Position numbers and translations under genes: made by a program. A DNA stretch of 11,216 nucleotides from a virus. Positions 1 to 11,216 of this stretch are shown here, in pieces. Position 1 is the first letter of the stretch, and each line of letters begins with the position of its first letter. The notes under the pieces were generated by a model. The model was not told the DNA's origin, did not search any database, and saw only the letters and a program-made list of their open reading frames with translations. The DNA lies in the UHGV virus genome UHGV-0117334; one strand, 5' to 3'.

Positions 1-18
1 TGCGGTTACTCTGCTCAT
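1..18 (-). CDS. 5' end of an Rz-like i-spanin gene (only first ~6 codons in window; continues beyond the left edge)
   Basis: Minus-strand ATG at 16-18 overlaps the lysozyme stop (ATGA). Encoded start MSRVTA matches the N-terminus of lambda Rz as I recall it. Position downstream of holin and endolysin is canonical. Confidence 0.35.
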
Positions 19-515
19 TGCTGCCCCCACAAACAGACTTCACGCTCAATCTCACGGCGAGTCATCAGCCCTTTCCATTGCTTGCCGCCAGCATATGTCC
101 AGCGACGTAGTTGATCACATGCACCTTTGATATCGCCCTGGTTGATTTTGCGAAGAAGTGTCGATGTTCTGAAATTGCCTGCACCCACGTTGTAAACGAA
201 CGAGTAAAGAGCACCACGCGTTGTTTCCGGTATATCGACTTTGATGTACGGGTTAATTTGTCTGGCGACAGTAGCAAGGTCTTTATTCAGGAGAGCTTTG
301 CATTCTGCTTCGGTATACGTTTTACCGAGCATAATGTCTTTTCCTGTATGCCCGTAACATACAGTCCATACACCAACGATGTCTTTGTAGGGGTTATGTC
401 TCACACCTTCCAGACCATCGTTGCCGCTCGGACCAGAGATGAGCACAGATGCTATGGCAATAGCCCCGCCACCAATAGCAGTTGCGACAGCTTTGCGTAA
501 TGATGACTGCATCAT
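15..515 (-). CDS. SAR-type endolysin (T4-type / GH24 phage lysozyme)
   Basis: 166-aa ORF. N-terminal Gly/Ala-rich hydrophobic segment ([21 protein letters not shown]) is typical of a signal-anchor-release domain, followed by a GLEG...D...T lysozyme catalytic region. Closely resembles phage 21 R / E. coli RrrD-type lysozymes from memory. Start ATG overlaps the holin stop (ATGA at 512-515). Confidence 0.9.
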
Positions 516-784
516 ATTTCCTTCGGTGCTCTCTTTCCCAATTCACCAATAACCATCGCCGTGGCGGAAATATTATTGGCATCAGTTTTATCCAATATGT
601 CCTGCAATATCTTCGTGCGCTTCATCTGCTCGCGTTTATTGAGCCGGTATGTAAGTACACCGAGGATAATGCTGAACGCGACACCGATAATGAAGCCCCA
701 ATCCTGCAATGACAGGCTGGCAAAGAACGCAGTAAGACCAGCACTACCATAAGATGCGCTGCTGTATCGTTCATCCATCTTCAT
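512..784 (-). CDS. class II holin (S21-like pinholin candidate)
   Basis: 90-aa ORF directly upstream of and overlapping the endolysin. Two predicted TM helices ([10 protein letters not shown] and [16 protein letters not shown]), Met-Lys-Met dual-start motif, charged C-terminus. GAGGT Shine-Dalgarno 7 nt upstream of the ATG. Confidence 0.8.
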
Positions 785-879
785 ATCTCTTACCTCGCAA
801 TAGTTGCTGAGGTTTCGGCTTGGAAACTATACGGCGAGAAATAACCCCATCAAAAACGGCAGGGGAATATATTCTTCAG

Positions 880-2001
880 TTACTCAAATAACTTTTTCAC
901 TTCATCAACTGTCTGAAGATAACGTTCACCCTCAATCTCAATACCGATTGCCTGACGACCTAACTTCAGCGCGGCTTTAATAGTAGAGCCTGATCCCATA
1001 AAGAAATCGGCAACGATATCTCCGGGGCGGGAACTACTTTTTATAATATGTTCCATCATCGCTGCAGGTTTTTCACATGGGTGCTTGCCAGGATAATATT
1101 GCACAGGAGGAAACTCCCATACATCGGTATAAGGTACATCAGCAGTAACATGAAATGGGCGGCGCAAATTTTCATACTGAGCCTTCAAATCATCATACTG
1201 CTTCTTTACTTCCTCATAACGCAATTTCAGATCGCTATAACGCTTTTCATGTTCTGAATAATCAACATTAAAAGGATATGGACACGGGACACCGAGTGAA
1301 TCTGCCTTCCTGCGAAATAATTCGCATAGTTTATTAAAATCACTTAATGATGGAAGCCGCCACTGCGAATAAGAAAACCAGTGCGAACACATCTGCTTTC
1401 CTGTTGCTGAATTAATGTCTGCGGCTGATATATCTAACTGACGGCGAGCCAGCGAAAAAGCATCAATTAGTGGAGAAAAAATATTTTTTCTTAAATCTGC
1501 ACATTTTGAAGCATAACCTGACTGACCTTTAGCATAACCTGACGCGCCGTAATGCTCTGCAAATAATATTCTTTCAGTGGCAGGAAAATAAGCCCTTAAA
1601 CTTTCTTTATGACAACCGCGCCACATACCACTGGGTTTAGCCCAAATGATATGGTTCAGAACATTGAAACGGTCGCGAGTTAATAATTCAATTTTTGACG
1701 CAAGGCGAGAGCCGGTAAACATATACAGGCTGCCATTAGGGGCCAATATCCGCCAAAATTCTGCCAAAAATTCATCAATCCACCCCAAAAAGTCAGCATC
1801 GCTATCCCACTGGTTATCCCATGCGTTAGCCTTTACGCCGAAGTATGGTGGGTCTGTTGCAATCAAATTGACCGAGTTATCAGGGATGGTTTTGATAAAT
1901 TGCAGAGAATCTGCGCAAACGAGTTGCGCGCCATGAATATTAGTGGTTTTGAACATAGCTATTATTTTTTTGCCTGGGTAAGCTAACCCGGCGATGCGCA
2001 T
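880..2001 (-). CDS. orphan DNA methyltransferase, beta-class amino-MTase (N6-adenine or N4-cytosine)
   Basis: 373-aa ORF with DPPY catalytic motif near the N-terminus (LIATDPPYFG) and SAM-binding motif I near the C-terminus (DFFMGSGSTIKAA), the circularly permuted order of beta-class MTases. Carries a coiled-coil-like insert (EHEKRYSDLKLRYEEVKKQYDDLKAQYENLRR). No restriction endonuclease partner in the window. No obvious SD before ATG 2001; an alternative start exists at Met16 (~1956). Confidence 0.85.
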   Translation of the reverse strand: MRIAGLAYPGKKIIAMFKTTNIHGAQLVCADSLQFIKTIPDNSVNLIATDPPYFGVKANAWDNQWDSDADFLGWIDEFLAEFWRILAPNGSLYMFTGSRLASKIELLTRDRFNVLNHIIWAKPSGMWRGCHKESLRAYFPATERILFAEHYGASGYAKGQSGYASKCADLRKNIFSPLIDAFSLARRQLDISAADINSATGKQMCSHWFSYSQWRLPSLSDFNKLCELFRRKADSLGVPCPYPFNVDYSEHEKRYSDLKLRYEEVKKQYDDLKAQYENLRRPFHVTADVPYTDVWEFPPVQYYPGKHPCEKPAAMMEHIIKSSSRPGDIVADFFMGSGSTIKAALKLGRQAIGIEIEGERYLQTVDEVKKLFE

Positions 2002-2091
2002 CGCGGGTGGGCTTTAGGTTCAGCCTATAGCTCTGGCATGGGTTGACCGCAGGACAAGCTGCAACTTGTCCTGCGCCCACTTTTCAGGCAC

Positions 2092-2116
2092 AAAAAAACC
2101 GCCATAAAGGCGGCTT
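2092..2116 (-). terminator. rho-independent terminator candidate (minus strand)
   Basis: On the minus strand: GC stem CCGCC/GGCGG (with G-U closing pair), 5-nt loop, then a run of 7 U. Lies between the two-gene leftward operon (2704->2224) and the methyltransferase. Confidence 0.5.
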
Positions 2117-2201
2117 GTTGGCTGTTGGGTACAAAAAACCCAACTTAACAAAACAATAACTAAAAACCGTAATTTTGCCAAGCTTTTTCGTTTTTGTGCT
2201 G

Positions 2202-2219
2202 TGCGACCGTGGTCGCACA
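2202..2219. repeat. 18-bp palindrome TGCGACCGTGGTCGCACA, copy 1 of 3; SopB/ParB-type centromere-like site candidate
   Basis: Exact 18-mer shared with 6403-6420 (reverse orientation) and 8848-8865. Arms TGCGACC/GGTCGCA around a GT centre. Differs from the recalled F sopC SopB site TGGGACCACGGTCCCA by one base per arm. Intergenic, followed by TTTTT on the + strand. Confidence 0.6.
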
Positions 2220-2223
2220 GTTT

Positions 2224-2451
2224 TTAGAAAGTTGCCTGCTTATATTCATCGGTCAAAGAATATCGACCAGACCCGCTACGCTTTGCAACCCCAAAACAGA
2301 TCATCTGTTCGATGATAAATTCAACGGCAGCTTGACTCAAAAAACAGGCTTCGCTTAACTCTTTCAGGGAAATGCGTGGGTATCCACGCATAACACATTC
2401 CACACTCAGGGCCGCTTCAGTCATATTTCCACGAATTTCATTAATATTCAT
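2224..2451 (-). CDS. hypothetical small protein (75 aa), possible winged-helix DNA-binding fold
   Basis: ORF with GAGAGG SD-like sequence about 6 nt upstream of the ATG. Follows the upstream small gene closely (13-bp gap). No recognisable catalytic motif. Confidence 0.55.
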   Translation of the reverse strand: MNINEIRGNMTEAALSVECVMRGYPRISLKELSEACFLSQAAVEFIIEQMICFGVAKRSGSGRYSLTDEYKQATF

Positions 2452-2464
2452 AACGCCTCTCTAA

Positions 2465-2704
2465 TCAATCTTGAAACTGGAAATCAACATCAGCCATAAA
2501 GCGGTTCAACTCAGCCAGTTTTGGCCCCATAGTCCCAACTAAGCGACCAGCCAGTCGGTCTGCCAGGTTGGTACTGTTGAAACCATATTCCTTTTCGAAA
2601 CGTTCAACCTTCTGCCACAACTCATACAGTTCGTTAGCTATCTCCGCAACGTCGTCGCGCATTTTTTCGTTACCTTGATAATTCATAATATCCTCCAAAT
2701 TCAT
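2465..2704 (-). CDS. hypothetical small protein (79 aa as drawn; more likely 73 aa starting at the internal ATG 2686)
   Basis: ORF from the track. The internal ATG at 2684-2686 (Met7) is preceded by a strong GGAGG SD 5 nt upstream, whereas ATG 2704 has none. Divergent from the toxin-antitoxin operon. Confidence 0.55.
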   Translation of the reverse strand: MNLEDIMNYQGNEKMRDDVAEIANELYELWQKVERFEKEYGFNSTNLADRLAGRLVGTMGPKLAELNRFMADVDFQFQD

Positions 2705-2774
2705 ATAGTTAGTGGGTTATTGCCCCTCAATGACACGAACTGTAACTCTGCCAAACGAACACATCCAGTGTTAT

Positions 2775-2792
2775 TTTCACTTTTTAGTGAAA
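2775..2792. promoter_or_regulatory. palindromic operator candidate upstream of the toxin-antitoxin operon (TTTCACT-N4-AGTGAAA)
   Basis: Perfect 7-bp inverted repeat with a 4-bp T spacer, about 60 bp upstream of the toxin ATG in the divergent promoter region. Type II TA operons are typically autoregulated through such sites. Confidence 0.45.
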
Positions 2793-2850
2793 TTTTTAAT
2801 TTGCGCTTTTTTCTTGTTTTGGTGTATTTTATGGCTATGGAGGCTATAAT

Positions 2851-3174
2851 ATGTTTAACGTGATAACCCACCCTGCAGCACTGGATGAACTGCTTGAACT
2901 ACCAGATGATTTGCGAGGTCGCATGACCAGATTAATTGAGCGACTGGAGAAGGAAGGCAACAAACTGAAGATGCCCCATAGCCGTGTAATAGGTGGAGGG
3001 CTTTTTGAACTACGAGTAGGGGATAAAAACATCGCAAGAACGCTGTACGCCTACGCGACTGGTAACGAAATTTATCTATTGCATGCTTTTGTCGAAACAA
3101 CGAAATATAACAAACAGAAAACACCGGTGAAGGCTATCGAAATCGCCAGAACTCGCCTGAAGGAGATGAACTGA
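2851..3174 (+). CDS. type II toxin, Gp49-like / HigB-like (RelE/ParE superfamily)
   Basis: 107-aa ORF with the family hallmark pattern ...RTLYAYATGNEIYLLHAFVETTKYNKQKTPVKAIEIARTRL. GGAGG SD 7 nt upstream of the ATG. Stop overlaps the start of the downstream HTH gene (TGATG). Confidence 0.8.
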   Translation: MFNVITHPAALDELLELPDDLRGRMTRLIERLEKEGNKLKMPHSRVIGGGLFELRVGDKNIARTLYAYATGNEIYLLHAFVETTKYNKQKTPVKAIEIARTRLKEMN

Positions 3175-3461
3175 TGAAAGCGAAAGGCATCCCGTTTAAC
3201 GAAGTAAAAGAAAAACTTCTCAACACTCCAGAAGCCATCAAAGGATATGAAGAGGCCGATAAAGAGCTGGAGATGGTCGAAATGTTATACGAAATGAGGG
3301 AAAGAGCAGGTTTAACGAAGTCAGCTCTGGCTGAACGAATGGGATTGCGCCCGTCAGCTATCAGCCGCCTGGAAAGCAATCCTTTAGGGGCAAGCATGAA
3401 AACTTTATCAAAATATGCCCAAGCATGCGGTGCAACGATTAATATTAATGCCGTCTATTGA
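3174..3461 (+). CDS. XRE-family HTH antitoxin (HigA-like) partner of the upstream toxin
   Basis: 95-aa ORF translationally coupled to the toxin. Helix-turn-helix segment LTKSALAERMGLRPSAISRLE. Toxin-first gene order is typical of HigBA-type modules. Confidence 0.8.
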   Translation: MKAKGIPFNEVKEKLLNTPEAIKGYEEADKELEMVEMLYEMRERAGLTKSALAERMGLRPSAISRLESNPLGASMKTLSKYAQACGATININAVY

Positions 3462-3478
3462 TTAGACCCTTTTCGCTA

Positions 3479-3498
3479 CCCCGTCCAGAAGGGCGGGG
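3479..3498. terminator. hairpin between convergent genes (possible bidirectional terminator)
   Basis: CCCCGTCC-AGAA-GGGCGGGG stem-loop (8 bp with one G-U pair) between the end of the antitoxin (+) and the end of the 72-aa ORF (-). Flanking U-tracts are weak. Confidence 0.35.
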
Positions 3499-3504
3499 TG
3501 TGTA

Positions 3505-3723
3505 TCAATGATGCAAACACTCAACAGCAATAACTTGTTGGCAATTCTGAGCAATCTCCCGCGACATACTAACAAGTCGTGAAATCTCGCCAAGATGCAA
3601 GCTGGCTTCTGGAGAAGCCAGAGCAACGCTAACCAGATCCAAAACGGCGTCGATGTCTTTTAGGTTTGATCCGAGTTCTTCAAGAGTTGATACAGGTGCT
3701 TCAGTCATTGAATCTAATACCAT
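3505..3723 (-). CDS. hypothetical small acidic protein (72 aa); candidate SOS-controlled antirepressor
   Basis: ORF lies immediately downstream (minus strand) of a near-consensus LexA box and an operator-like sequence. No clear SD before the ATG, so the translation start is uncertain. Function inferred from context only. Confidence 0.4.
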   Translation of the reverse strand: MVLDSMTEAPVSTLEELGSNLKDIDAVLDLVSVALASPEASLHLGEISRLVSMSREIAQNCQQVIAVECLHH

Positions 3724-3747
3724 TTAATTAAAAAAGGTTATTTGATA

Positions 3748-3763
3748 CTGTATAAAATTACAG
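3748..3763. promoter_or_regulatory. LexA (SOS) box CTGT-N8-ACAG
   Basis: tACTGTATAAAATTACAGgg matches the E. coli LexA consensus TACTGTATATATATACAGTA at 16 of 20 positions, with an AT-rich 8-bp spacer. Sits 25-40 bp upstream of the minus-strand 72-aa ORF. Confidence 0.6.
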
Positions 3764-3773
3764 GGTAAAACTC

Positions 3774-3791
3774 AAATTTTATAGCCAACTT
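3774..3791. promoter_or_regulatory. operator-like sequence related to the repressor/cro operators
   Basis: AAATTTTATAGCCA is identical over 14 nt (16 of 18 over the extended site) to 7601-7618 in the repressor/cro intergenic operator region. Confidence 0.4.
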
Positions 3792-3964
3792 TCAATGGAT
3801 TAACTGGTTAAATATCTTTGTAGTCCGATACTTATGTTCCCTTCCTACGCCTCGCCCAACCACTTTCAAAAGCCCATCACCACCATCAGAAAAGCTCTTT
3901 TCGCTTCGTTTTCTCATCATTTCAAAAACTATGCCTTTTTGTTTATTTATCATTCCGTGACCAG

Positions 3965-4291
3965 TCACACTTTGAGCACAAGTTTCAGCCTCGTAGTTGT
4001 AAGGTGACATGAGCCTTCACCATCAAAAATACATTCTGAAACAGGCATTTTCTGACCACATCGCGGGCAAGTAGTAGATAGCTGCTTCTGCAGCTCCTTA
4101 TAGTTTTTCCTGATCAGCAGACCGATGACTTCATTCTCTGAATATGGAACTCGTCCCGGTCTACGCAATACACAAATTTCCCCCAACATACGTAGCTCGT
4201 CAGGTTCCAGAATCCAGTCCCGTCTTGATGTGCCTTCCTTCTTCAACCGTTCCCTGCGTCTCCTTTGCCGTTCTGCAGCTGTCAGCGCCAT
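3965..4291 (-). CDS. hypothetical protein with C-terminal Zn-ribbon (CPRC...C..C) and Arg/Lys-rich N-terminus
   Basis: 108-aa ORF with strong GGAGG SD 4 nt upstream of the ATG. Motif CPRCGQKMPVSECIFDGEGSCH. Last gene of the leftward early operon. Confidence 0.6.
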   Translation of the reverse strand: MALTAAERQRRRRERLKKEGTSRRDWILEPDELRMLGEICVLRRPGRVPYSENEVIGLLIRKNYKELQKQLSTTCPRCGQKMPVSECIFDGEGSCHLTTTRLKLVLKV

Positions 4292-4310
4292 AAATCCTCC
4301 TGAAAATTAC

Positions 4311-4865
4311 TTAACCCAATGCAGGAAGTGAAACAGAAAACTGAATATGACCATCCGGAGTTACCGGAGAGTTGCCAGCCTCATACGCGACCCTTATCCA
4401 GTGCATAAACATTTCAGTACTTACACATCCACAATCAACATCAATTTTGTCATGCTGCTGTTCCAGCCATTGCTCAAAAGTTAACTTGTAAGTTTGGCTT
4501 ACAGGTTTGGCTTCCAGTTCTGCTACGCGCTGTTTTGCAGCATCCAGTTCAATCGACAATTTTTCCAACTGCTCTTTATGCTTCTTGTATTCCTGATATG
4601 CGTGCCAGGACTGACCTTTGCGCACACTATCAGTAATATCAGTAATCTGTTCTGGTGTTAGCGTGGTCAGTGGCTGTGCTGGGAAAATCAGCACTTTCCC
4701 GGAATCCCAATCAAAACCAGCGTGAATTGACTGAACCTCAACTGAGGGTGTTGAACCAATGCTGCCAGGCGAATGAATAACGATTGTTACATCCATATCG
4801 CAACGCTGGCTGTGTTTGTTGGACAAGATACGATTCACCAACTCAGAAAATTTGGAAAATTTCAT
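4311..4865 (-). CDS. hypothetical protein (184 aa)
   Basis: ORF whose start overlaps the stop of the upstream gene (ATGA). Central coiled-coil-like segment (KEQLEKLSIELDAAKQRVAELEAK). No recognisable catalytic motif. Confidence 0.65.
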   Translation of the reverse strand: MKFSKFSELVNRILSNKHSQRCDMDVTIVIHSPGSIGSTPSVEVQSIHAGFDWDSGKVLIFPAQPLTTLTPEQITDITDSVRKGQSWHAYQEYKKHKEQLEKLSIELDAAKQRVAELEAKPVSQTYKLTFEQWLEQQHDKIDVDCGCVSTEMFMHWIRVAYEAGNSPVTPDGHIQFSVSLPALG

Positions 4866-5152
4866 GCTGATTCCCCTTTCTCTGCTCTCTCCTGTCGGAA
4901 CATCACTATCATCAGGTCGCCTTTTGTCGCTATCTTGGCTGTTGTGCCTGGCTCAATGCGGCTAAGTTCAAATGCGTCATAGAACGCCTCTAACACTTTC
5001 TGGCGTCTTTCCTGTTTGCGGTGCTTTCCCCACTGCTTTAGAAAAACAGAGGCCGCCCACTTCCCCGCACTGAACATGATGTAAAACCAACCGAGAAGTG
5101 CCAGACCGATATTTATGGCCGTATCGATCGTTATCGTGGTGTCGATATTCAC
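4862..5152 (-). CDS. hypothetical small membrane protein (96 aa)
   Basis: Start overlaps the upstream stop. One predicted N-terminal TM helix (INIGLALLGWFYIMFSAG) followed by a basic stretch. Confidence 0.55.
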   Translation of the reverse strand: MNIDTTITIDTAINIGLALLGWFYIMFSAGKWAASVFLKQWGKHRKQERRQKVLEAFYDAFELSRIEPGTTAKIATKGDLMIVMFRQERAEKGESA

Positions 5153-5571
5153 TACGCCACCTCCTGAAAATTTCCCTGATAAAAAGCCAGCACACGCTGC
5201 ATAACTTCACTTTTCCGGCAATCGTGACAAATCATGTTCAAGCGCCTGTCGTAACGACGTATTTCTCCGTCAGGTAATGACCAGATAAGGTCTGGATCAA
5301 CCACTACCGATGTCTTCGGCTTTACTCTTGATAGTTTTTTACGGGCGTTTTGCCAGTCCTTGCGTGCTTGTGCAGACAGAAATATCCCGGAGCCAGAGAT
5401 ATACAAATCACCACTGGCAGCAAGCTCTCTTGATAAACGACTAACAGCACACCGGCTAATACCAGTTTCATCCGCAAGTTGCCTAACCGTTCCTCGTCCA
5501 TTCAGGCGCACGAGTTCCACAATTTGTTTATTCAGTTCTTCCCTCTGTTCTGGTGTAAAAGCCTTTGCCAT
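5152..5571 (-). CDS. putative DNA-binding protein with (winged) helix-turn-helix
   Basis: 139-aa ORF; HTH-like segment GTVRQLADETGISRCAVSRLSREL. Start overlaps the exonuclease stop (TAATG), indicating translational coupling. Confidence 0.65.
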   Translation of the reverse strand: MAKAFTPEQREELNKQIVELVRLNGRGTVRQLADETGISRCAVSRLSRELAASGDLYISGSGIFLSAQARKDWQNARKKLSRVKPKTSVVVDPDLIWSLPDGEIRRYDRRLNMICHDCRKSEVMQRVLAFYQGNFQEVA

Positions 5572-6170
5572 TACGATTCTCCTTGCCCTTTTACAAGACG
5601 GGAGAAAATTGCTGATACATATTTATCCTGATGAATAGCATCAGCCAGGGCATTGTGTCGTTCGCCATCAAATGGCATATCTTTTTTAGGATTAAAACCA
5701 ATAAACTGACCAAGGTTAACGATTGTTCGAACATCCTGATCATTAAAATATTCCCACGGACAGGCTAAGCCAACGCGCTCATAAGCACCGCGTAAAATTA
5801 CATTATCGAACGTTGCTCCATTTCCCCATACTTTCAATTTTTTTAAATTACATGCATGGCAAGTAATAAAGTGTGATAATTCAAAAAGTGCATCCTTAAT
5901 ATCAAGGGCATCATTAGTACAAATTGCTGCTCTGGCTTCCTTGCTCTGTTTCAACCACCATAAAATGGTATCACCATCGGCGACACCACCATTCAACATC
6001 GAGCTTCTGAGATTCACTGGTACATAAAAAGTAGGACCTAATTCCTCACTTTCTGGAGAAAAAAACACTGCCCCGATAGAAACAATTGGAGCACATGTGT
6101 TAGTACCCATTGTTTCAAGGTCAATCATTACATCAGACCGTTTCCTGTCGTAAATAATCTGATTAGTCAC
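5571..6170 (-). CDS. DEDDh-family 3'-5' exonuclease (DnaQ-like fold)
   Basis: 199-aa ORF with Exo I motif MIDLETMG, an Exo II-like Asp (GATFDN) and Exo III motif H-x4-D (ERHNALADAIH). GTG start with GAGGAG SD 8 nt upstream. Confidence 0.8.
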   Translation of the reverse strand: MTNQIIYDRKRSDVMIDLETMGTNTCAPIVSIGAVFFSPESEELGPTFYVPVNLRSSMLNGGVADGDTILWWLKQSKEARAAICTNDALDIKDALFELSHFITCHACNLKKLKVWGNGATFDNVILRGAYERVGLACPWEYFNDQDVRTIVNLGQFIGFNPKKDMPFDGERHNALADAIHQDKYVSAIFSRLVKGQGES

Positions 6171-6193
6171 GAATAATTCTCCTCAACGTTTAT

Positions 6194-6397
6194 CTATACC
6201 CAAATTTTCTGTTGATATGTTCTGGATGGTTTTGGCGTTCTTTCTGATTCAGGTAAATGAACATAAACGCAATATCCATCACCTAAAAAATCAGAACGAA
6301 CAACCAGAACTTTCTTACCACGCCGCCGATAAGTATCTGAAAGACGCTCTGCTTCATCATGCGTCATCGGCCCCTGCTTAAATGGCGTTATTTTCAT
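6194..6397 (-). CDS. hypothetical small protein (67 aa from ATG 6397; track ORF extends to 6421 via a GTG inside the palindrome)
   Basis: ORF in the leftward operon. The 18-bp palindrome sits 6-23 nt upstream of the ATG, over the ribosome-binding region. Confidence 0.5.
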   Translation of the reverse strand: MKITPFKQGPMTHDEAERLSDTYRRRGKKVLVVRSDFLGDGYCVYVHLPESERTPKPSRTYQQKIWV

Positions 6398-6698
6398 TTT
6401 CTTGTGCGACCACGGTCGCACCCTCTCTGATTTCCAAGTAACGCTTAATCCAAAGATTTTCTATATGCTTATTACCTGGCTGATTTGATAAATACCAATC
6501 GGCAATTACAGACTGCTTATTACTATCTGGTCGTGTCCTGTAACCACAAGTTGGACACCAGATAACATATTCATTTCTTACCCCCGAATACCTTAATTCT
6601 GGCTTCGACGGTTTCCTGAACATAACTTGTTTACAAAGGCAGAATGGCACTTCCTGCCCGATGGCGTTTGATGATTTCACTGCGCTTCTCCGCCGCAT
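6378..6698 (-). CDS. hypothetical Zn-ribbon protein (CPTCGYR motif); start uncertain
   Basis: 106-aa ORF from the track. Its 5' 68 nt overlap the upstream 236-aa gene, and an internal ATG at 6623 would give 81 aa. The C-terminal residues ATVVAQ are encoded by the palindrome. Confidence 0.5.
   Translation of the reverse strand: MRRRSAVKSSNAIGQEVPFCLCKQVMFRKPSKPELRYSGVRNEYVIWCPTCGYRTRPDSNKQSVIADWYLSNQPGNKHIENLWIKRYLEIREGATVVAQENENNAI
6403..6420. repeat. 18-bp palindrome, copy 2 of 3 (reverse orientation); centromere-like site candidate
   Basis: TGTGCGACCACGGTCGCA on the + strand is the exact reverse complement of the 18-mer at 2202-2219 and 8848-8865. Overlaps the 3' end of the 106-aa ORF and the translation initiation region of the next gene. 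Confidence 0.6.
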
Positions 6699-7341
6699 TT
6701 AATAATGCAGTTCGATTTAAGCTCAGACATCGCGACTTAATTAAAAGCCAGCGTTCTTTATAATCTTGTCTCCAGCTATCAATAGATATATTCAGTAGAA
6801 AACTCAGATGCCTGTCCTGTTCTCTCTCATCAACTGCCTCAGCACACGTAAGTTCTGATTTAACCTGCTGTGCCGCGTAATAAATCAATTTCCGCATGGC
6901 TTTTTTCGTGGAGGCCTTCATTTTTTTAAAGCCGCCCCCCGAATGAGCAACCAGAAAATCAAGCCATAACCACTGACAAACAATCACATCATTGTTGTAA
7001 TCAGGCTTGCATCCGTAGCAATAATAAAGCCAGGCTGATTCCTCGTTATTCAACTGACCAATAGCCCTGCGCCAGCTGGCGCTCTGAAAATCAATATCAG
7101 TGAGCAACATTGATGATTGTTTAAATGTTTTCCCCTGGTGGAATCTAACCGGCTCAGCAGGAACGGACACTTCGTATGAGTTATCATCACCTACACTGAT
7201 TGACCGGACTGGTTTATTGTTAAAGCGTCCTGATCTGCCTAGACGCATCTGCTCAAGCTGGACCTCTAGGATGCCACGCTGGCGATAATGAATATCAGCC
7301 AATGCCGTGGATACGCAGCTGCGTATATACTCAAGCTCCAC
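6631..7341 (-). CDS. hypothetical protein (236 aa); Q-like late antiterminator candidate by position
   Basis: GTG start with AAGGAG SD about 10 nt upstream, immediately after cro. Several Cys residues (CYGC...C). Antiterminator role is inferred only from the cB-cro-Q gene order recalled for N15-like phages, not from a recognised motif. Confidence 0.6.
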   Translation of the reverse strand: MELEYIRSCVSTALADIHYRQRGILEVQLEQMRLGRSGRFNNKPVRSISVGDDNSYEVSVPAEPVRFHQGKTFKQSSMLLTDIDFQSASWRRAIGQLNNEESAWLYYCYGCKPDYNNDVIVCQWLWLDFLVAHSGGGFKKMKASTKKAMRKLIYYAAQQVKSELTCAEAVDEREQDRHLSFLLNISIDSWRQDYKERWLLIKSRCLSLNRTALLNAAEKRSEIIKRHRAGSAILPL

Positions 7342-7579
7342 GCTTACGGCTCTCCTTAATCGACTGCTTTACCCGCCGAGTTGTAAAGTCACTCTTCAGC
7401 TTGTAAGCAGTACGAACTTCAATATCACTTTGCCGCAATGAAGGAATCTCTCCAGCGGTTAACCATTGGTAAACAGCACCGGGTGTTACACCTACCCCAG
7501 CCGCTGCTTTTTCTACACTGCCAAAGTGGCGAATAAGTTCTTCTGGTTTCATGCGGTTATTATAAGCAATAAATCGCAT
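7331..7579 (-). CDS. cro: Cro-like HTH regulator
   Basis: 82-aa ORF divergent from the repressor. HTH segment FGSVEKAAAGVGVTPGAVYQWL is typical of Cro/YdaS-type proteins. An alternative start at ATG 7552 (MKPEEL...) lies just downstream of a TATAAT-like hexamer. Confidence 0.75.
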   Translation of the reverse strand: MRFIAYNNRMKPEELIRHFGSVEKAAAGVGVTPGAVYQWLTAGEIPSLRQSDIEVRTAYKLKSDFTTRRVKQSIKESRKRGA

Positions 7580-7580
7580 T

Positions 7581-7620
7581 TAAAGCCAGCTATAATAAAT
7601 AAATTTTATAGCCAGCTATA
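7581..7620. promoter_or_regulatory. operator region: two 14-bp palindromes TA(A/T)AGC-CA-GCTATA between divergent repressor and cro genes
   Basis: TAAAGCCAGCTATA (7581-7594) and TATAGCCAGCTATA (7607-7620) are spaced 26 bp centre to centre in the 64-bp intergenic region; the second ends 23 bp before the repressor ATG. Confidence 0.6.
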
Positions 7621-7643
7621 AGAAGATCATTTATGATTAAGCT

Positions 7644-8240
7644 ATGAAAACACGAGGCGAACGACTGAAAGCACGCCGTTTAGAGATGAAGCTGACGTTG
7701 CGAGAAGTTGCTGAGGCTGTCGATATCTCTATTGCAGGCGTCCAAAACTTAGAACGTGGCGACGTAATGCCGTCACTGGAGATAGGTATTGCCCTGGCTA
7801 AGTGCTTACGCAAGCCAGTGCATTGGGTGCTATATGGGACAGAATATGACCCTGATCGCATTCCTGTTATTGGCACAACTGAAAGTGGGCCGGATGAAGA
7901 GTGGAAGCCGGGACAGGTTCCAAATACTGAGCGATTCCTGCCATTCATCAGCCAGCGCAATACTGTGTATGCGTTAACTATCAGCAATCTTACGCAGGGA
8001 AACTATCAGCCAGGCGATTTTCTCCTGGTCGATTCTGCGCTGGAACTGGTCCCCGGCGAGGATGTTCTGGTTCGTGATACTGCAGGAAATATCACTATCC
8101 AGCGCCTGGCCCGTTTTGATGATGAAAATTACTATCTGGATGGAACAAACTCACAACGCGCCATCTTCAGGAAAAGCGATCTTGAATTTGTTCACCAAAT
8201 AGTCGGAACGATCAAATCATTCATGGTTGAGGGTAGATGA
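7644..8240 (+). CDS. phage repressor, CI/CB-type (N-terminal XRE HTH, C-terminal beta-rich domain)
   Basis: 198-aa ORF. HTH segment LTLREVAEAVDISIAGVQNLERG. The C-terminal domain resembles the oligomerisation / peptidase-like domain of CI/LexA-type repressors, but I could not pick out a clear Ser-Lys catalytic dyad by eye. No SD before the ATG, so it may be translated from a leaderless or short-leader mRNA. Confidence 0.85.
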   Translation: MKTRGERLKARRLEMKLTLREVAEAVDISIAGVQNLERGDVMPSLEIGIALAKCLRKPVHWVLYGTEYDPDRIPVIGTTESGPDEEWKPGQVPNTERFLPFISQRNTVYALTISNLTQGNYQPGDFLLVDSALELVPGEDVLVRDTAGNITIQRLARFDDENYYLDGTNSQRAIFRKSDLEFVHQIVGTIKSFMVEGR

Positions 8241-8341
8241 CTTAATACGGGGTTTATTGTTTGCTGTAAATCTGGTTTAATGCAGGGCATATGTTCTGTG
8301 GGTTGACTCAGGTTACAGCAGCAGAAAAAAGACGAAAAAAA

Positions 8342-8370
8342 ACCCGAGTCGGCAAACTCGGGTCCTTTTC
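8342..8370 (+). terminator. rho-independent terminator downstream of the repressor gene
   Basis: A-tract, then 8-bp stem ACCCGAGT/ACTCGGGT with 6-nt loop, then CCTTTTC. Located about 100 bp after the repressor stop. Confidence 0.6.
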
Positions 8371-8485
8371 AGGAAGCAGCCACAACAACGCGACAGATTC
8401 CGTCAATTCAAGATGCGTTTATTGTGGCTGCTCCTGCGGATTTTTTCAACCCGAAAAAACATAATTCGCATGGAATGGCTAAAAA

Positions 8486-11020
8486 ATGACATTAAACGAT
8501 TTCTATGCGGATCGCTTTGGCAGCGATCCGTTCTCGCTAATTGAAGCAGCACGGGATGAAATAACCGAGCTGGCACAGATGGCTGGTATCAACTGGCCTG
8601 CCTGTTCCGACAACATCCAACTCAACCCTCGCGGGGGGGGTGAGCGTTACTCTTCATACAATAAAACATCTCCAGAAGCTCTCGAAAAGAGCCTGAAAGG
8701 ACGCGTAGAAATTTACTCCAGGCTGGAACACAGCAAAGGGATTGATTACCCGTTCATTAACTTCGTCCATAAAGGCAGCGATGCTGGCTCATGGAGCGGT
8801 TTCTCCTTCCTGTTTTCTGAATATCGCCGTGAGCAACAACGGAATAATGCGACCGTGGTCGCACAACCGGAAGAAGAACGGGCAAGAATAGAACGTCAGG
8901 CCGAAGCACGTCGTCGCCGTGAAGAACAAAAACGAATTAATGACCTGAAAAACAACCAAATGGACCATGAACGTTTGCTGGGATGGCTGGCATTCCACAG
9001 TGCTTGGGAACATGCTCCTGCAGAAGACGGCTCATGGCCATATGCGATTAAAAAAGGTATTCGTGACGTTTTTAATTCGTGTGATGTGCGTCGCGTGACC
9101 AGTCACGACAGCGCAAAATGGAGCAGGGGGCCAACCACGTATATGGCTATCCCTCTGGCTCACCTGGACGGTCGTTACGATGGTCGTATTGTTGGTTGGC
9201 AGAGAATCGACAAACAAGGTGGAAAATACCAGACCAGCGCCGTAACCAGCGGCGATTTCGTCGGTGCCTGCTTTGTTATCGGTGAGCTGAAAGGGGCGCA
9301 AAACATCGCTGTTACAGAAGGTTTTGCTACTGGTGCATCCATCTGGCTTGCCACGAAAAAAGATAAACGCTTTGACGCTGTGGTTGTCGCTGTATCCGCT
9401 AACAACATGGTTCATGTTGTGGAACAACTGGTAAACATGTACCCGGCGGCAAAAATCACCTGCGCACTGGATAATGACCGGAAATCAGCTACAGAAGGAA
9501 AAGGGAATACCGGCCTGCGGACTGGCTATGAAATCTTATCGAAATTCAACGATGTCCGCTGCGTCTATCCAACTTTTGAAGACGATCCGCAAATGGAGTG
9601 CAGTGACTTCAACGACCTGCACAAACTACGTGGACTTCGTGAAACAGCACGTCAACTGTTTGCAACTGCAAACCGCCTGAAAACTGGCACTGATTTGCTA
9701 TCTCTGACGCTCAACCGCCTGAAGACAATTAAGCGGGATAACCGTCGTACTTTTGCCAAAGAGCTGCTGAGAGCGGTGGATATTGGCATGCTAACCTGTC
9801 CGGTTCCTAACAGTCCGTCAGACTTATTTAACATGTTCTGCATCGTTCTGCGTGAAATGGGGCTGGAAAATATCTATCGCGCTACGGTAAAAGACCACAT
9901 TGCCCGTCGCCTGAATAAAAAGTGCCGTATTGCCCAGGCTCCGCGCTCATTCAGCGAACGCATAACTGATCCCAATAAACGTCCTCAACATATCACCTAT
10001 AAGCGTTTTGAAACTTCGGTAATGACCGATGACGTCCTGAAGTACGTGCAATCACTACAGGGGATAGTCATCGTCCGTGCTGGTATGGGTTCCGGCAAAT
10101 CTACTGGATTGTTACGACCGTTAATGCATAGCTCAGAACGTGGTATCTCTGTTGCTCACCGTGTCTCCCTTATTGGTGGCCTGTGGGAAATGATGACAGA
10201 AGGAAAAGGTGTAAAAGCCGATATCCTGCACTATCAGGACCCTGGCTATCAGGAAATGGCTCCATACGCCAGTAAACTGACCATCTGCATAAACTCGATT
10301 GTTAAAAACTGCTGGCAACCGTTGATGCGCCAGCACGACTATTTTGGCTTTGACGAGGCCACACAAGGGCTACGTGCCGTTCTTTCCGGTCGGGCTATGG
10401 AAAACCCGGTGGCTGTATTCCATACGCTAATTGACGCGCTGGCCAGAACGGAACAACACCCAATCATGGTGGATGCTGATGCGAACGATCTGCTGGTTGA
10501 CCTGGCTGAACTGGCTATGAAACGCCGTGAAGAACTAGGTTTACCGGCATGGCTGCAGATCCACGTAATTGAATTACCTGTTGATGTTCGCAACCGCGAA
10601 ACAGGTGAGCCAATCCGGGTTTTTTATACAGAAAAAGATCGCATTATGACCGAGGTGGTGAAAGCTGTATCGGATGGCGAAAAAATCATGTTGGCCACCG
10701 ACAGCTCCACCTTTGCAGAAGATGTGACAGCCACCCTGAGAATGCATTTTCCTGGTAAGAAATTTCTGTGTGTAAACCAGAAAAGTAAACAGGATGAAGA
10801 AGTCGATGCCTTTACCAACCAGCCAAAAGTAATGGTGATGAAATACGATGGACTGATCTACAGTCCGTCAATTTCCTCCGGGGTGTCATTTGAGAAAAAA
10901 CATTTTGACCGTCATTTCGGCATGTTCTGCGGTGAAGTTGTGCCCAGCGACGCAGTGCAAATGCTACGCCGCGACCGTACAGCAAAAGAATTTATTATCG
11001 GCTTTGAAAGATACGGATAA
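8486..11020 (+). CDS. repA: replication protein: Toprim-type primase fused to a P-loop helicase (RepA-like primase-helicase)
   Basis: 844-aa ORF. Toprim motifs (IAVTEGFATGASI with catalytic Glu; CALDNDRK DxD motif). Walker A (GMGSGKST) and Walker B-like (YFGFDEATQG) in the C-terminal half. Same strand as and downstream of the repressor, as recalled for repA in N15-like phage-plasmids. Gene symbol is by architecture only. Confidence 0.85.
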   Translation: MTLNDFYADRFGSDPFSLIEAARDEITELAQMAGINWPACSDNIQLNPRGGGERYSSYNKTSPEALEKSLKGRVEIYSRLEHSKGIDYPFINFVHKGSDAGSWSGFSFLFSEYRREQQRNNATVVAQPEEERARIERQAEARRRREEQKRINDLKNNQMDHERLLGWLAFHSAWEHAPAEDGSWPYAIKKGIRDVFNSCDVRRVTSHDSAKWSRGPTTYMAIPLAHLDGRYDGRIVGWQRIDKQGGKYQTSAVTSGDFVGACFVIGELKGAQNIAVTEGFATGASIWLATKKDKRFDAVVVAVSANNMVHVVEQLVNMYPAAKITCALDNDRKSATEGKGNTGLRTGYEILSKFNDVRCVYPTFEDDPQMECSDFNDLHKLRGLRETARQLFATANRLKTGTDLLSLTLNRLKTIKRDNRRTFAKELLRAVDIGMLTCPVPNSPSDLFNMFCIVLREMGLENIYRATVKDHIARRLNKKCRIAQAPRSFSERITDPNKRPQHITYKRFETSVMTDDVLKYVQSLQGIVIVRAGMGSGKSTGLLRPLMHSSERGISVAHRVSLIGGLWEMMTEGKGVKADILHYQDPGYQEMAPYASKLTICINSIVKNCWQPLMRQHDYFGFDEATQGLRAVLSGRAMENPVAVFHTLIDALARTEQHPIMVDADANDLLVDLAELAMKRREELGLPAWLQIHVIELPVDVRNRETGEPIRVFYTEKDRIMTEVVKAVSDGEKIMLATDSSTFAEDVTATLRMHFPGKKFLCVNQKSKQDEEVDAFTNQPKVMVMKYDGLIYSPSISSGVSFEKKHFDRHFGMFCGEVVPSDAVQMLRRDRTAKEFIIGFERYG
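8848..8865. repeat. 18-bp palindrome, copy 3 of 3, inside the primase-helicase coding sequence
   Basis: TGCGACCGTGGTCGCACA identical to 2202-2219. Encodes the residues ATVVAQ of the replication protein. Confidence 0.6.
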
Positions 11021-11021
11021 G

Positions 11022-11216
11022 GGATACCGTAATGCGGCTTTGAACTTCGCTTCGGGTTTCGCTGATCAAAATGTTTATATCGAGGTCATGAAACACATGT
11101 TAAAGGCGAAGCCGGAAGTCAAGGTGGATATCTTGAACTGGATAGGCCGTGAAAGCAAATGCCCGTCTAAACATGACGTGATCAAGAATCTGGAACTTCG
11201 TTTTGATCTACCAGCG
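11022..11216 (+). CDS. open reading frame in the +1 frame relative to repA, running off the window end; either a frameshifted C-terminal continuation of the replication protein or a separate downstream gene
   Basis: This frame is open from 10857 to 11216 with no stop, overlapping the last 164 nt of repA. Both frames look protein-like. First in-frame ATG is at 11088. Confidence 0.4.

Follow-up and report, generated by a model that had tools for sequence, protein, structure and literature searches.

A gut-metagenome contig matches the right arm of N15-like linear phage-plasmids and almost certainly ends in mis-joined Parabacteroides distasonis DNA

Introduction

Among phage-plasmids, the N15-like telomere phages form an established group (PMC7969092; bioRxiv 10.1101/2025.09.12.675607). 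N15 replication initiates within repA, one N15 centromere site lies inside the same gene, and N15 is present at about 5 copies per cell (PMC2847241); the centromere as a whole consists of four dispersed inverted repeats, IR1 to IR4, all with GTGCGACC-NN-GGTCGCAC (sequences, including the IR2 oligo, in PMC7205306 Table 4). The CB repressors of N15 and phiKO2 are without self-cleavage residues, their operators are 16-bp T-A-N10-T-A sites, and CB bound at O_L represses repA and lowers copy number in both phages (PMC4997575). For the toxin-antitoxin pair of N15, toxicity and stabilisation were reported by Dziewit et al. 2007, as cited in PMC5906591. Here we compare with these systems the virus genome UHGV-0117334 (the window: the whole stretch analysed, 11,216 bases), for which a sequence-only reading had proposed an N15-like phage-plasmid rather than an integrated lambdoid prophage.

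We found that positions 1-11007 of the window are very probably the right-arm part of an N15-like (Ravinvirus) temperate siphovirus of Escherichia, of the type whose prophage takes the form of a linear, low-copy, hairpin-ended plasmid, and that 10986-11216 are almost certainly mis-joined Parabacteroides distasonis DNA. This is an already known kind of element, its lineage is already in GenBank at about 98% identity, and it holds little new biology. Its value is for annotation: the contig label should be partial Ravinvirus phage-plasmid, not lambdoid prophage.

Results

Closest relatives and gene content

The window is one whole contig from a gut metagenome (ENA ERZ1742538, NODE_916_length_11216_cov_2.327390); the name has the format of a SPAdes-type assembler (metaSPAdes), and coverage is low (2.3x). 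Since no flanking sequence exists for the window, anything outside it was judged from relatives. By megablast against phage records, the best DNA matches are Ravinvirus or N15-like telomere phages: Escherichia phage YDC107_1, classified in Ravinvirus, is 97.9% identical over 98% of the window, and Escherichia phage PhiR46_1 is 97.7% identical, also over 98%. Klebsiella phage phiKO2 reaches 74.8% identity in aligned parts that make up 54% of the window, and N15 75.7% in aligned parts that make up 29%. The likeness to N15 and phiKO2 on which the sequence-only reading was built is thus borne out, at about 75% identity to both and with N15 synteny.

Gene content was checked by a listing of open reading frames (ORFs), Pfam, NCBIfam and PHROGs, with 20 called genes. 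All genes compared keep the N15 order (repA, cB, cro, Q, gp46 to gp52), with amino acid (aa) identities to N15 of 82% for RepA (residues 1-841), 78% for CB, 87% for Cro, 67% for Q, 77% for gp46, 86% for gp48, 87% for gp49, 81% for gp50, 75% for gp51 and 84% for the gp52 methylase. Apart from the ORFs at 3505-3723 (76%) and 3792-4010 (46%), every gene in 1-11007 is intact and shares 95-100% identity with its counterpart in YDC107_1 and PhiR46_1.

We found no match to integrase or lambda O/P families among the 20 genes (Pfam, PHROGs), no att-like repeat and no tRNA in the window (ARAGORN), and no Rfam family reached its gathering threshold anywhere in it. The repressor gene and the large primase-helicase gene are adjacent and co-oriented, repA starting 245 nucleotides (nt) past cB, and cro runs directly into the Q gene with an 11-nt overlap (Table 1). 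These features, together with a Gp49-family toxin and dispersed centromere-like palindromes (both below), had been pointed out in the sequence-only reading, and all of them stand.

Replicon context and telomeres of the relatives

A search of 5,426 complete E. coli genomes placed the cro-cB-repA segment in 18 of them, at 23 places, and all 23 are on plasmid replicons (0 chromosomal). Similarly, the segment matches 467 plasmid records in PLSDB, 454 of which are non-mobilizable. The full-length relatives encode a protelomerase and SopA/ParB, have telL/telR ends and carry no tyrosine integrase. PhiR46_1 (PV340565.1), carried by isolate ECOR13, has a linear genome of 46,290 bp whose ends are annotated as telL and telR; it encodes ParA/ParB and lacks an integrase. 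Its TelN, SopA and SopB are 77%, 93% and 76% identical to those of N15, and its ends carry a 22-bp telO palindrome (CCATTATACGCGCGTATAATGG) identical to that of N15 telRL. The RefSeq plasmid pZ1323HEC0355-3 (NZ_CP148365.1) has PGAP-annotated protelomerase, SopA, ParB and CyRepA1 RepA. Its sole recombinase is a 184-aa serine recombinase (74-628) beside partial or inverted tail-fibre and tail-fibre-assembly genes, probably a Hin/Gin/Cin-type invertase that switches fibres and host range; in screens, the invertase of N15-like elements is not to be confused with an integrase.

In the YDC107_1 record (CP025712.1), the 368 nt on either side of the telomere cut site ...CCCATTATACGC|GCGTATAATGGG... 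around 36742 form an exact, perfect palindrome (2 x 368 nt), and telN, repA and other genes are mirror-duplicated (28021-36551 versus 36934-46299); sopAB is unannotated in this record. Such a palindrome is what a long read running through a covalently closed hairpin yields; the record looks like an assembly of this kind and so supports the linear hairpin form by indirect physical evidence. Two matching places are also found in several E. coli 'plasmid' relatives of 61-91 kb, probably from the same read-through artefact.

Replication gene, operators and centromere sites

We found that residues 1-841 of RepA, 82% identical to N15 gp37, are 99% identical to RepA of YDC107_1, with the Pfam domains Toprim_3 at residues 274-383 and Herpes_ori_bp at 521-674. 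The NCBIfam model CyRepA1 scores 182 bits over half of the model, under its cut-off of 200, because RepA is truncated here: the ORF has 844 aa, versus 1,327-1,331 aa in relatives. The N15 origin presumably lies in the 3' part of repA, the part missing from this contig.

The window holds three O_R and two O_L operators, arranged as in N15. The number and spacing of the O_R sites equal those of the annotated N15 CB operator interval, and both O_L sites align with the annotated N15 O_L interval (34056-34094) in the same 23-nt register. CB itself matches PF01381 (E=3e-11); its Peptidase_S24 match is below the Pfam threshold (21.3 versus 23.3 bits), which fits the reported loss of self-cleavage residues (PMC4997575). 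The longest cro ORF has 82 aa, starts at 7579 and overlaps O_R1. The PGAP call for Cro in a relative is a 73-aa form, and N15 Cro likewise begins at the equivalent of an internal Met (7552). Since O_R1 sits within the longest cro ORF, the true cro start is probably this internal Met.

Three copies of the GTGCGACC-NN-GGTCGCAC core are present in the window, relative to 0.00 expected in shuffled sequence. In the N15 genome one repeat is inside repA (33479), one after Q (35930), one after gene 51 (41124) and one at 45561, and the three window sites are orthologous to IR1, IR2 and IR3 (Table 1); the IR3-type site immediately follows the gp51 homologue, and the late promoter is about 20 nt farther downstream. 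Because their positions are orthologous and their flanks match, the window palindromes are real SopB-type sites.

Right end of the contig

Every relative's match ends at 11007, and the RepA frame meets a stop at 11020. Beyond 11007 the tail has no similarity to YDC107_1 or N15 and no match in any complete E. coli genome, which excludes an E. coli insertion sequence element or E. coli chromosomal junction. We found the tail in a glycoside-hydrolase gene of P. distasonis: strain NM39_I3 matches 10986-11216 at 231 of 231 bases, strain TSDC17.2 matches 11000-11216 with 97.7% identity, and among 185,579 species representatives P. distasonis alone contains a 40-mer taken from the tail. The P. distasonis TSDC17.2-1.1 record NZ_OY725779.1 ('plasmid 34', 375 kb) carries the housekeeping genes recQ, murB, upp, nth and HU, and is probably a chromosome fragment mislabelled as a plasmid.

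Up to 11007 the window tracks the phage, and from 10986 on it tracks P. distasonis. The 22-mer common to both stretches is found in repA of YDC107_1 and PhiR46_1 and in two P. distasonis genomes; a 46-kb element set against 1 Gb of community DNA is expected to share about five 22-mers by chance. The contig ends 209 nt beyond the join; repA and the glycoside-hydrolase gene are both cut mid-frame, and the partner comes from another phylum (Bacteroidota). The junction sequence is absent from JGI metagenome contigs and IMG/VR, so a real recombinant has no independent support there. Hence, the join is almost certainly a de Bruijn-graph assembly mis-join, neither an integration junction nor a real recombinant.

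Since the stop at 11020 comes from the mis-join, the 844-aa 'RepA' ORF is artificially truncated; the real RepA is about 1,330 aa. The interval 7331-11216, taken as phage in the sequence-only reading, is phage as far as 11007, and the P. distasonis DNA at 11008-11216 had been missed. The last about 210 bases and the 844-aa 'RepA' should stay out of protein databases and host-assignment pipelines; the chimeric contig otherwise suggests a false Escherichia-Parabacteroides cross-phylum host range.

Leader of repA

The cB-repA leader (8241-8485, 245 nt) is better conserved than the neighbouring genes. In an alignment of the window with N15, phiKO2, two other Klebsiella phages (48ST307 and KpLi5) and an Enterobacter phage (six phages in all), it has a mean column identity of 88%, versus about 75% for coding DNA, and contains invariant blocks. 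Its hairpin terminator is placed between the O_L/promoter region and the repA ATG, aligns with an N15 stem-loop (33979-34013) and with a phiKO2 terminator annotated 'putative bidirectional', and is followed by two further hairpins. From a promoter-like site on the minus strand at 8449-8421, a countertranscript could run for about 85 nt, as far as this terminator.

Both leader strands fold better than shuffled sequence (z = -4.1 and -4.3). Covariation across the six phages (term +0.59, most pairs invariant) is negligible because the sequence hardly varies, and is too weak to prove structure. Together, the leader hints at attenuation or a countertranscript in repA control; in the literature that we searched, neither an attenuator nor an antisense RNA is described for the leader of N15 repA.

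Toxin-antitoxin, late-control, accessory and lysis genes

The Gp49-family toxin gene is directly followed by the antitoxin gene with a one-base overlap at 3174, and N15 gp49 is named a RelE/ParE-family toxin in RefSeq. By analogy with N15, the pair is a predicted plasmid-stabilising type II toxin-antitoxin system (tad-ata-like, Gp49/HigB-type).

The late promoter and terminator align with N15 41162-41250, where a -35, a -10 and a terminator are annotated; placed ahead of the methylase and lysis genes, they are the probable target of Q antitermination. Downstream of the terminator, in the methylase leader, is a 28-nt near-perfect palindrome (CGCAGGACAAGCTG/CAACTTGTCCTGCG) at 2048-2075. It is kept in N15, where most substitutions preserve pairing (A-T to G-C; one arm position only G-U), and it may be a second RNA hairpin of the Q-dependent late transcript. 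The methylase ORF (880-2001, 373 aa) is 84% identical to N15 DNA 41342-42433; since this alignment begins about 280 nt upstream of the annotated gene 52 start (41621), the N15 annotation may start too late.

The window is mosaic at 4311-6170, where N15 genes 41-45 are replaced by 3'-5' exonuclease, DUF977/Ren-like, DUF4752 and Ea22-like genes common to lambdoid phages; the segment 4513-5153 is 91.6% identical to phage vB_EcoM-Ro157c2YLVW. The ORF at 6378-6698 matches a Lar-like restriction-alleviation PHROG family. The lysis cassette (15-784) has a lambda-type holin and endolysin, and therefore about 100 lambdoid phages match only bases 2-505, where nucleotide identity to many integrated lambda-like phages is 92-93%.

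Table 1. Features of the window, by position
Feature	Position	Strand	Description
Late terminator	2116-2096	-	Between late promoter and methylase/lysis genes; consensus scan
Late promoter	-35 TTGGCA 2181-2176; -10 TATTGT 2158-2153	-	Candidate from consensus scan
SopB site, N15 IR3 orthologue	2201-2218		GTGCGACCGTGGTCGCAC; exact core; aligns with N15 41124-41141
Gp49-family toxin	2851-3174	+	PF05973, E=1e-24; 87% identical to N15 gp49
Helix-turn-helix antitoxin	3174-3461	+	HTH_3, E=2e-12; 86% identical to N15 gp48
SopB site, N15 IR2 orthologue	6404-6421		GTGCGACCACGGTCGCAC; downstream of Q; exact core; flanks match N15 35930-35947
Q-type late antiterminator	6631-7341	-	PF06323, E=2e-84; 67% identical to N15 gp40
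cro lytic repressor	7331-7579	-	PF14549 P22_Cro, E=2e-22; 87% identical to N15 gp39 from residue 10 on
O_R1	7557-7572		Window TTATTATAAGCAATAA; N15 TTATTATAATCAATAA; 1 nt difference
O_R2	7580-7595		Window TTAAAGCCAGCTATAA; N15 TTAAAGCTAGGTATAA; 2 nt difference
O_R3	7606-7621		TTATAGCCAGCTATAA; identical in N15
cB prophage repressor	7644-8240	+	HTH_3 N-terminal domain, degenerate S24-like C-terminal domain; 78% identical to N15 gp38
O_L1	8254-8269		Window TTATTGTTTGCTGTAA; N15 TTATTGCTGACTATAA; upstream of repA
O_L2	8277-8292		Window TTAATGCAGGGCATAT; N15 TTAATCCGATCTATAC; upstream of repA
Hairpin terminator between cB/O_L and repA	8335-8370		Terminator scan; invariant across N15-like phages
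repA, 5' part only	8486-11007	+	Multidomain primase/helicase replication initiator; about 840 of about 1,330 codons
SopB site, N15 IR1 orthologue	8847-8864		ATGCGACCGTGGTCGCAC; inside repA; one core mismatch; flanks match N15 33479-33496 reverse complement
Shared 22-mer, mis-join point	10986-11007		AAGAATTTATTATCGGCTTTGA; native to phage repA and P. distasonis gene
Foreign DNA	11008-11216	+	Internal fragment of P. distasonis family-16 glycoside-hydrolase gene

Discussion

The assignment to N15-like phage-plasmids is carried by directly observed homology, synteny, operator and centromere sites and the plasmid-only context of the relatives, and the chimera is likewise shown here. Several points weigh on the other side. 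The telN, telRL, sopAB and structural genes and the 3' third of repA lie off this contig, so the linear-plasmid state rests on relatives of ~98% identity; a metagenome cannot separate virion DNA from prophage DNA; and the chimera call is made from the contig rather than from reads, on the grounds that the two parents have a 22-mer in common, coverage is low, both genes are truncated mid-gene and the origin is cross-phylum.

Were the window an integrated lambdoid prophage with the non-phage DNA at its right end as the chromosomal junction, the lambda-like identity of its lysis genes would be expected, and the contig does end in non-phage 'chromosomal' DNA. Yet that junction cuts repA and a glycoside-hydrolase gene both in mid-gene, the latter from a Bacteroidota species, which does not serve this phage group as a host, and the 22-mer at the join belongs natively to each genome. 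The segment has no chromosomal place in the complete E. coli genomes, the window is without integrase, att-like repeat, tRNA or O/P genes, and in replication, immunity and partition it has the features of N15 instead of lambda's. Having looked for integrase, att sites, chromosomal genes on both sides and lambdoid best hits and found none, we give the lambdoid prophage almost no credence and regard it as effectively refuted already. Scarcely more credible is a real molecule made in the gut by illegitimate or microhomology-mediated recombination of the phage-plasmid with P. distasonis DNA. With 22 shared nt, joining through microhomology is possible in principle, and such a junction, if true, would directly show an enterobacterial phage-plasmid capturing DNA across phyla. 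However, a 22-nt overlap is two consecutive 21-mers, the classic signature of a k=21 graph mis-join, here in a contig of 2.33 coverage; about five such matches are expected by chance; the contig stops shortly after the join; such recombination would cost the element its essential repA; and the junction is in no other assembly searched (JGI metagenomes, IMG/VR). Hence, we retain the assembly mis-join.

A different doubt concerns the state of the element, which could be a defective or circular plasmid derivative, or free virions, instead of a functional linear prophage-plasmid. In favour of this are several short or partial relatives in PLSDB (16-38 kb) and one relative of 45.9 kb whose deposit is labelled circular, and the metagenome is uninformative on physical state. 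The genes in 1-11007 are nevertheless intact and nearly identical to those of the complete YDC107_1 and PhiR46_1 outside the two divergent ORFs, fragmented assemblies or hairpin read-through account for the short and the oversized relatives, and the 'circular' labels on protelomerase-encoding 46-kb records are likely deposit conventions. We consider a defective, circular or virion form unlikely, and favour the functional linear prophage-plasmid.

By analogy with experiments on N15 and phiKO2, carried over through 67-87% protein identity and near-identical sites, the element might work as follows. In lysogeny, CB on O_R1-3 would silence cro and Q, and CB on O_L1-2 would keep repA transcription, and hence copy number, low. 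RepA would prime replication in both directions from an origin that lies within repA itself (PMC2847241), TelN would resolve the replicated telomeres, SopB on the dispersed centromere sites would partition the copies with SopA, and the Gp49/gp48 pair would disfavour plasmid-free segregants. Upon induction, Cro and Q would be made, and Q would carry RNA polymerase from the late promoter (2181-2153) through the terminator (2116-2096), the read-through reaching the methylase, lysis and structural genes. The linear hairpin state, the regulatory logic and the toxin-antitoxin function of this particular copy are all drawn from the same experiments.

Compared with known systems, the window shares with lambda and lambdoid phages the endolysin-holin module, the layout of Q-type late antitermination and a CI/Cro-like switch. 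Unlike lambda, it is without int/xis/att, O/P and N, its repressor has a plasmid replication gene under its control as well, it carries centromere sites, and its relatives are never chromosomal. phiKO2 and the Klebsiella telomere phages 48ST307, NAR688 and KpLi5 are about 75% identical in nucleotides across Q-cro-cB-repA, with a nearly invariant repA leader and terminator, and differ in host genus, in their larger genomes (51-55 kb) and in divergent accessory genes.

N15 (NC_001901), the Ravinvirus type species, has in common with the window the repA-cB-cro-Q...gp46-gp52 order at 67-87% aa identity, three O_R and two O_L operators (O_R3 identical), the IR1-IR3 sites, the late promoter and terminator and the gp49/gp48 pair. 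It differs in genes 41-45, replaced in the window by the exonuclease, DUF977/Ren-like, DUF4752 and Ea22-like genes, and in its N15-type holin and endolysin, versus lambda-type in the window (lysozyme 33% identical). Since nucleotide identity to N15 is about 75%, the window phage is a different species.

Closest is the group of YDC107_1 (CP025712.1), PhiR46_1 (PV340565.1) and about 27 'plasmids' of ~46 kb from E. coli, Shigella, E. fergusonii and E. albertii. Between the window and this group, ORFs 3505-3723 and 3792-4010 diverge (76% and 46% identical), the Ea22-like ORF differs in length (184 aa versus 219 aa, a 660-nt gene), and the Parabacteroides tail is in the window only. Over 1-11007 nucleotide identity is 97-99%, and gene set and order, operators, centromere sites and repA leader are all as in the window.

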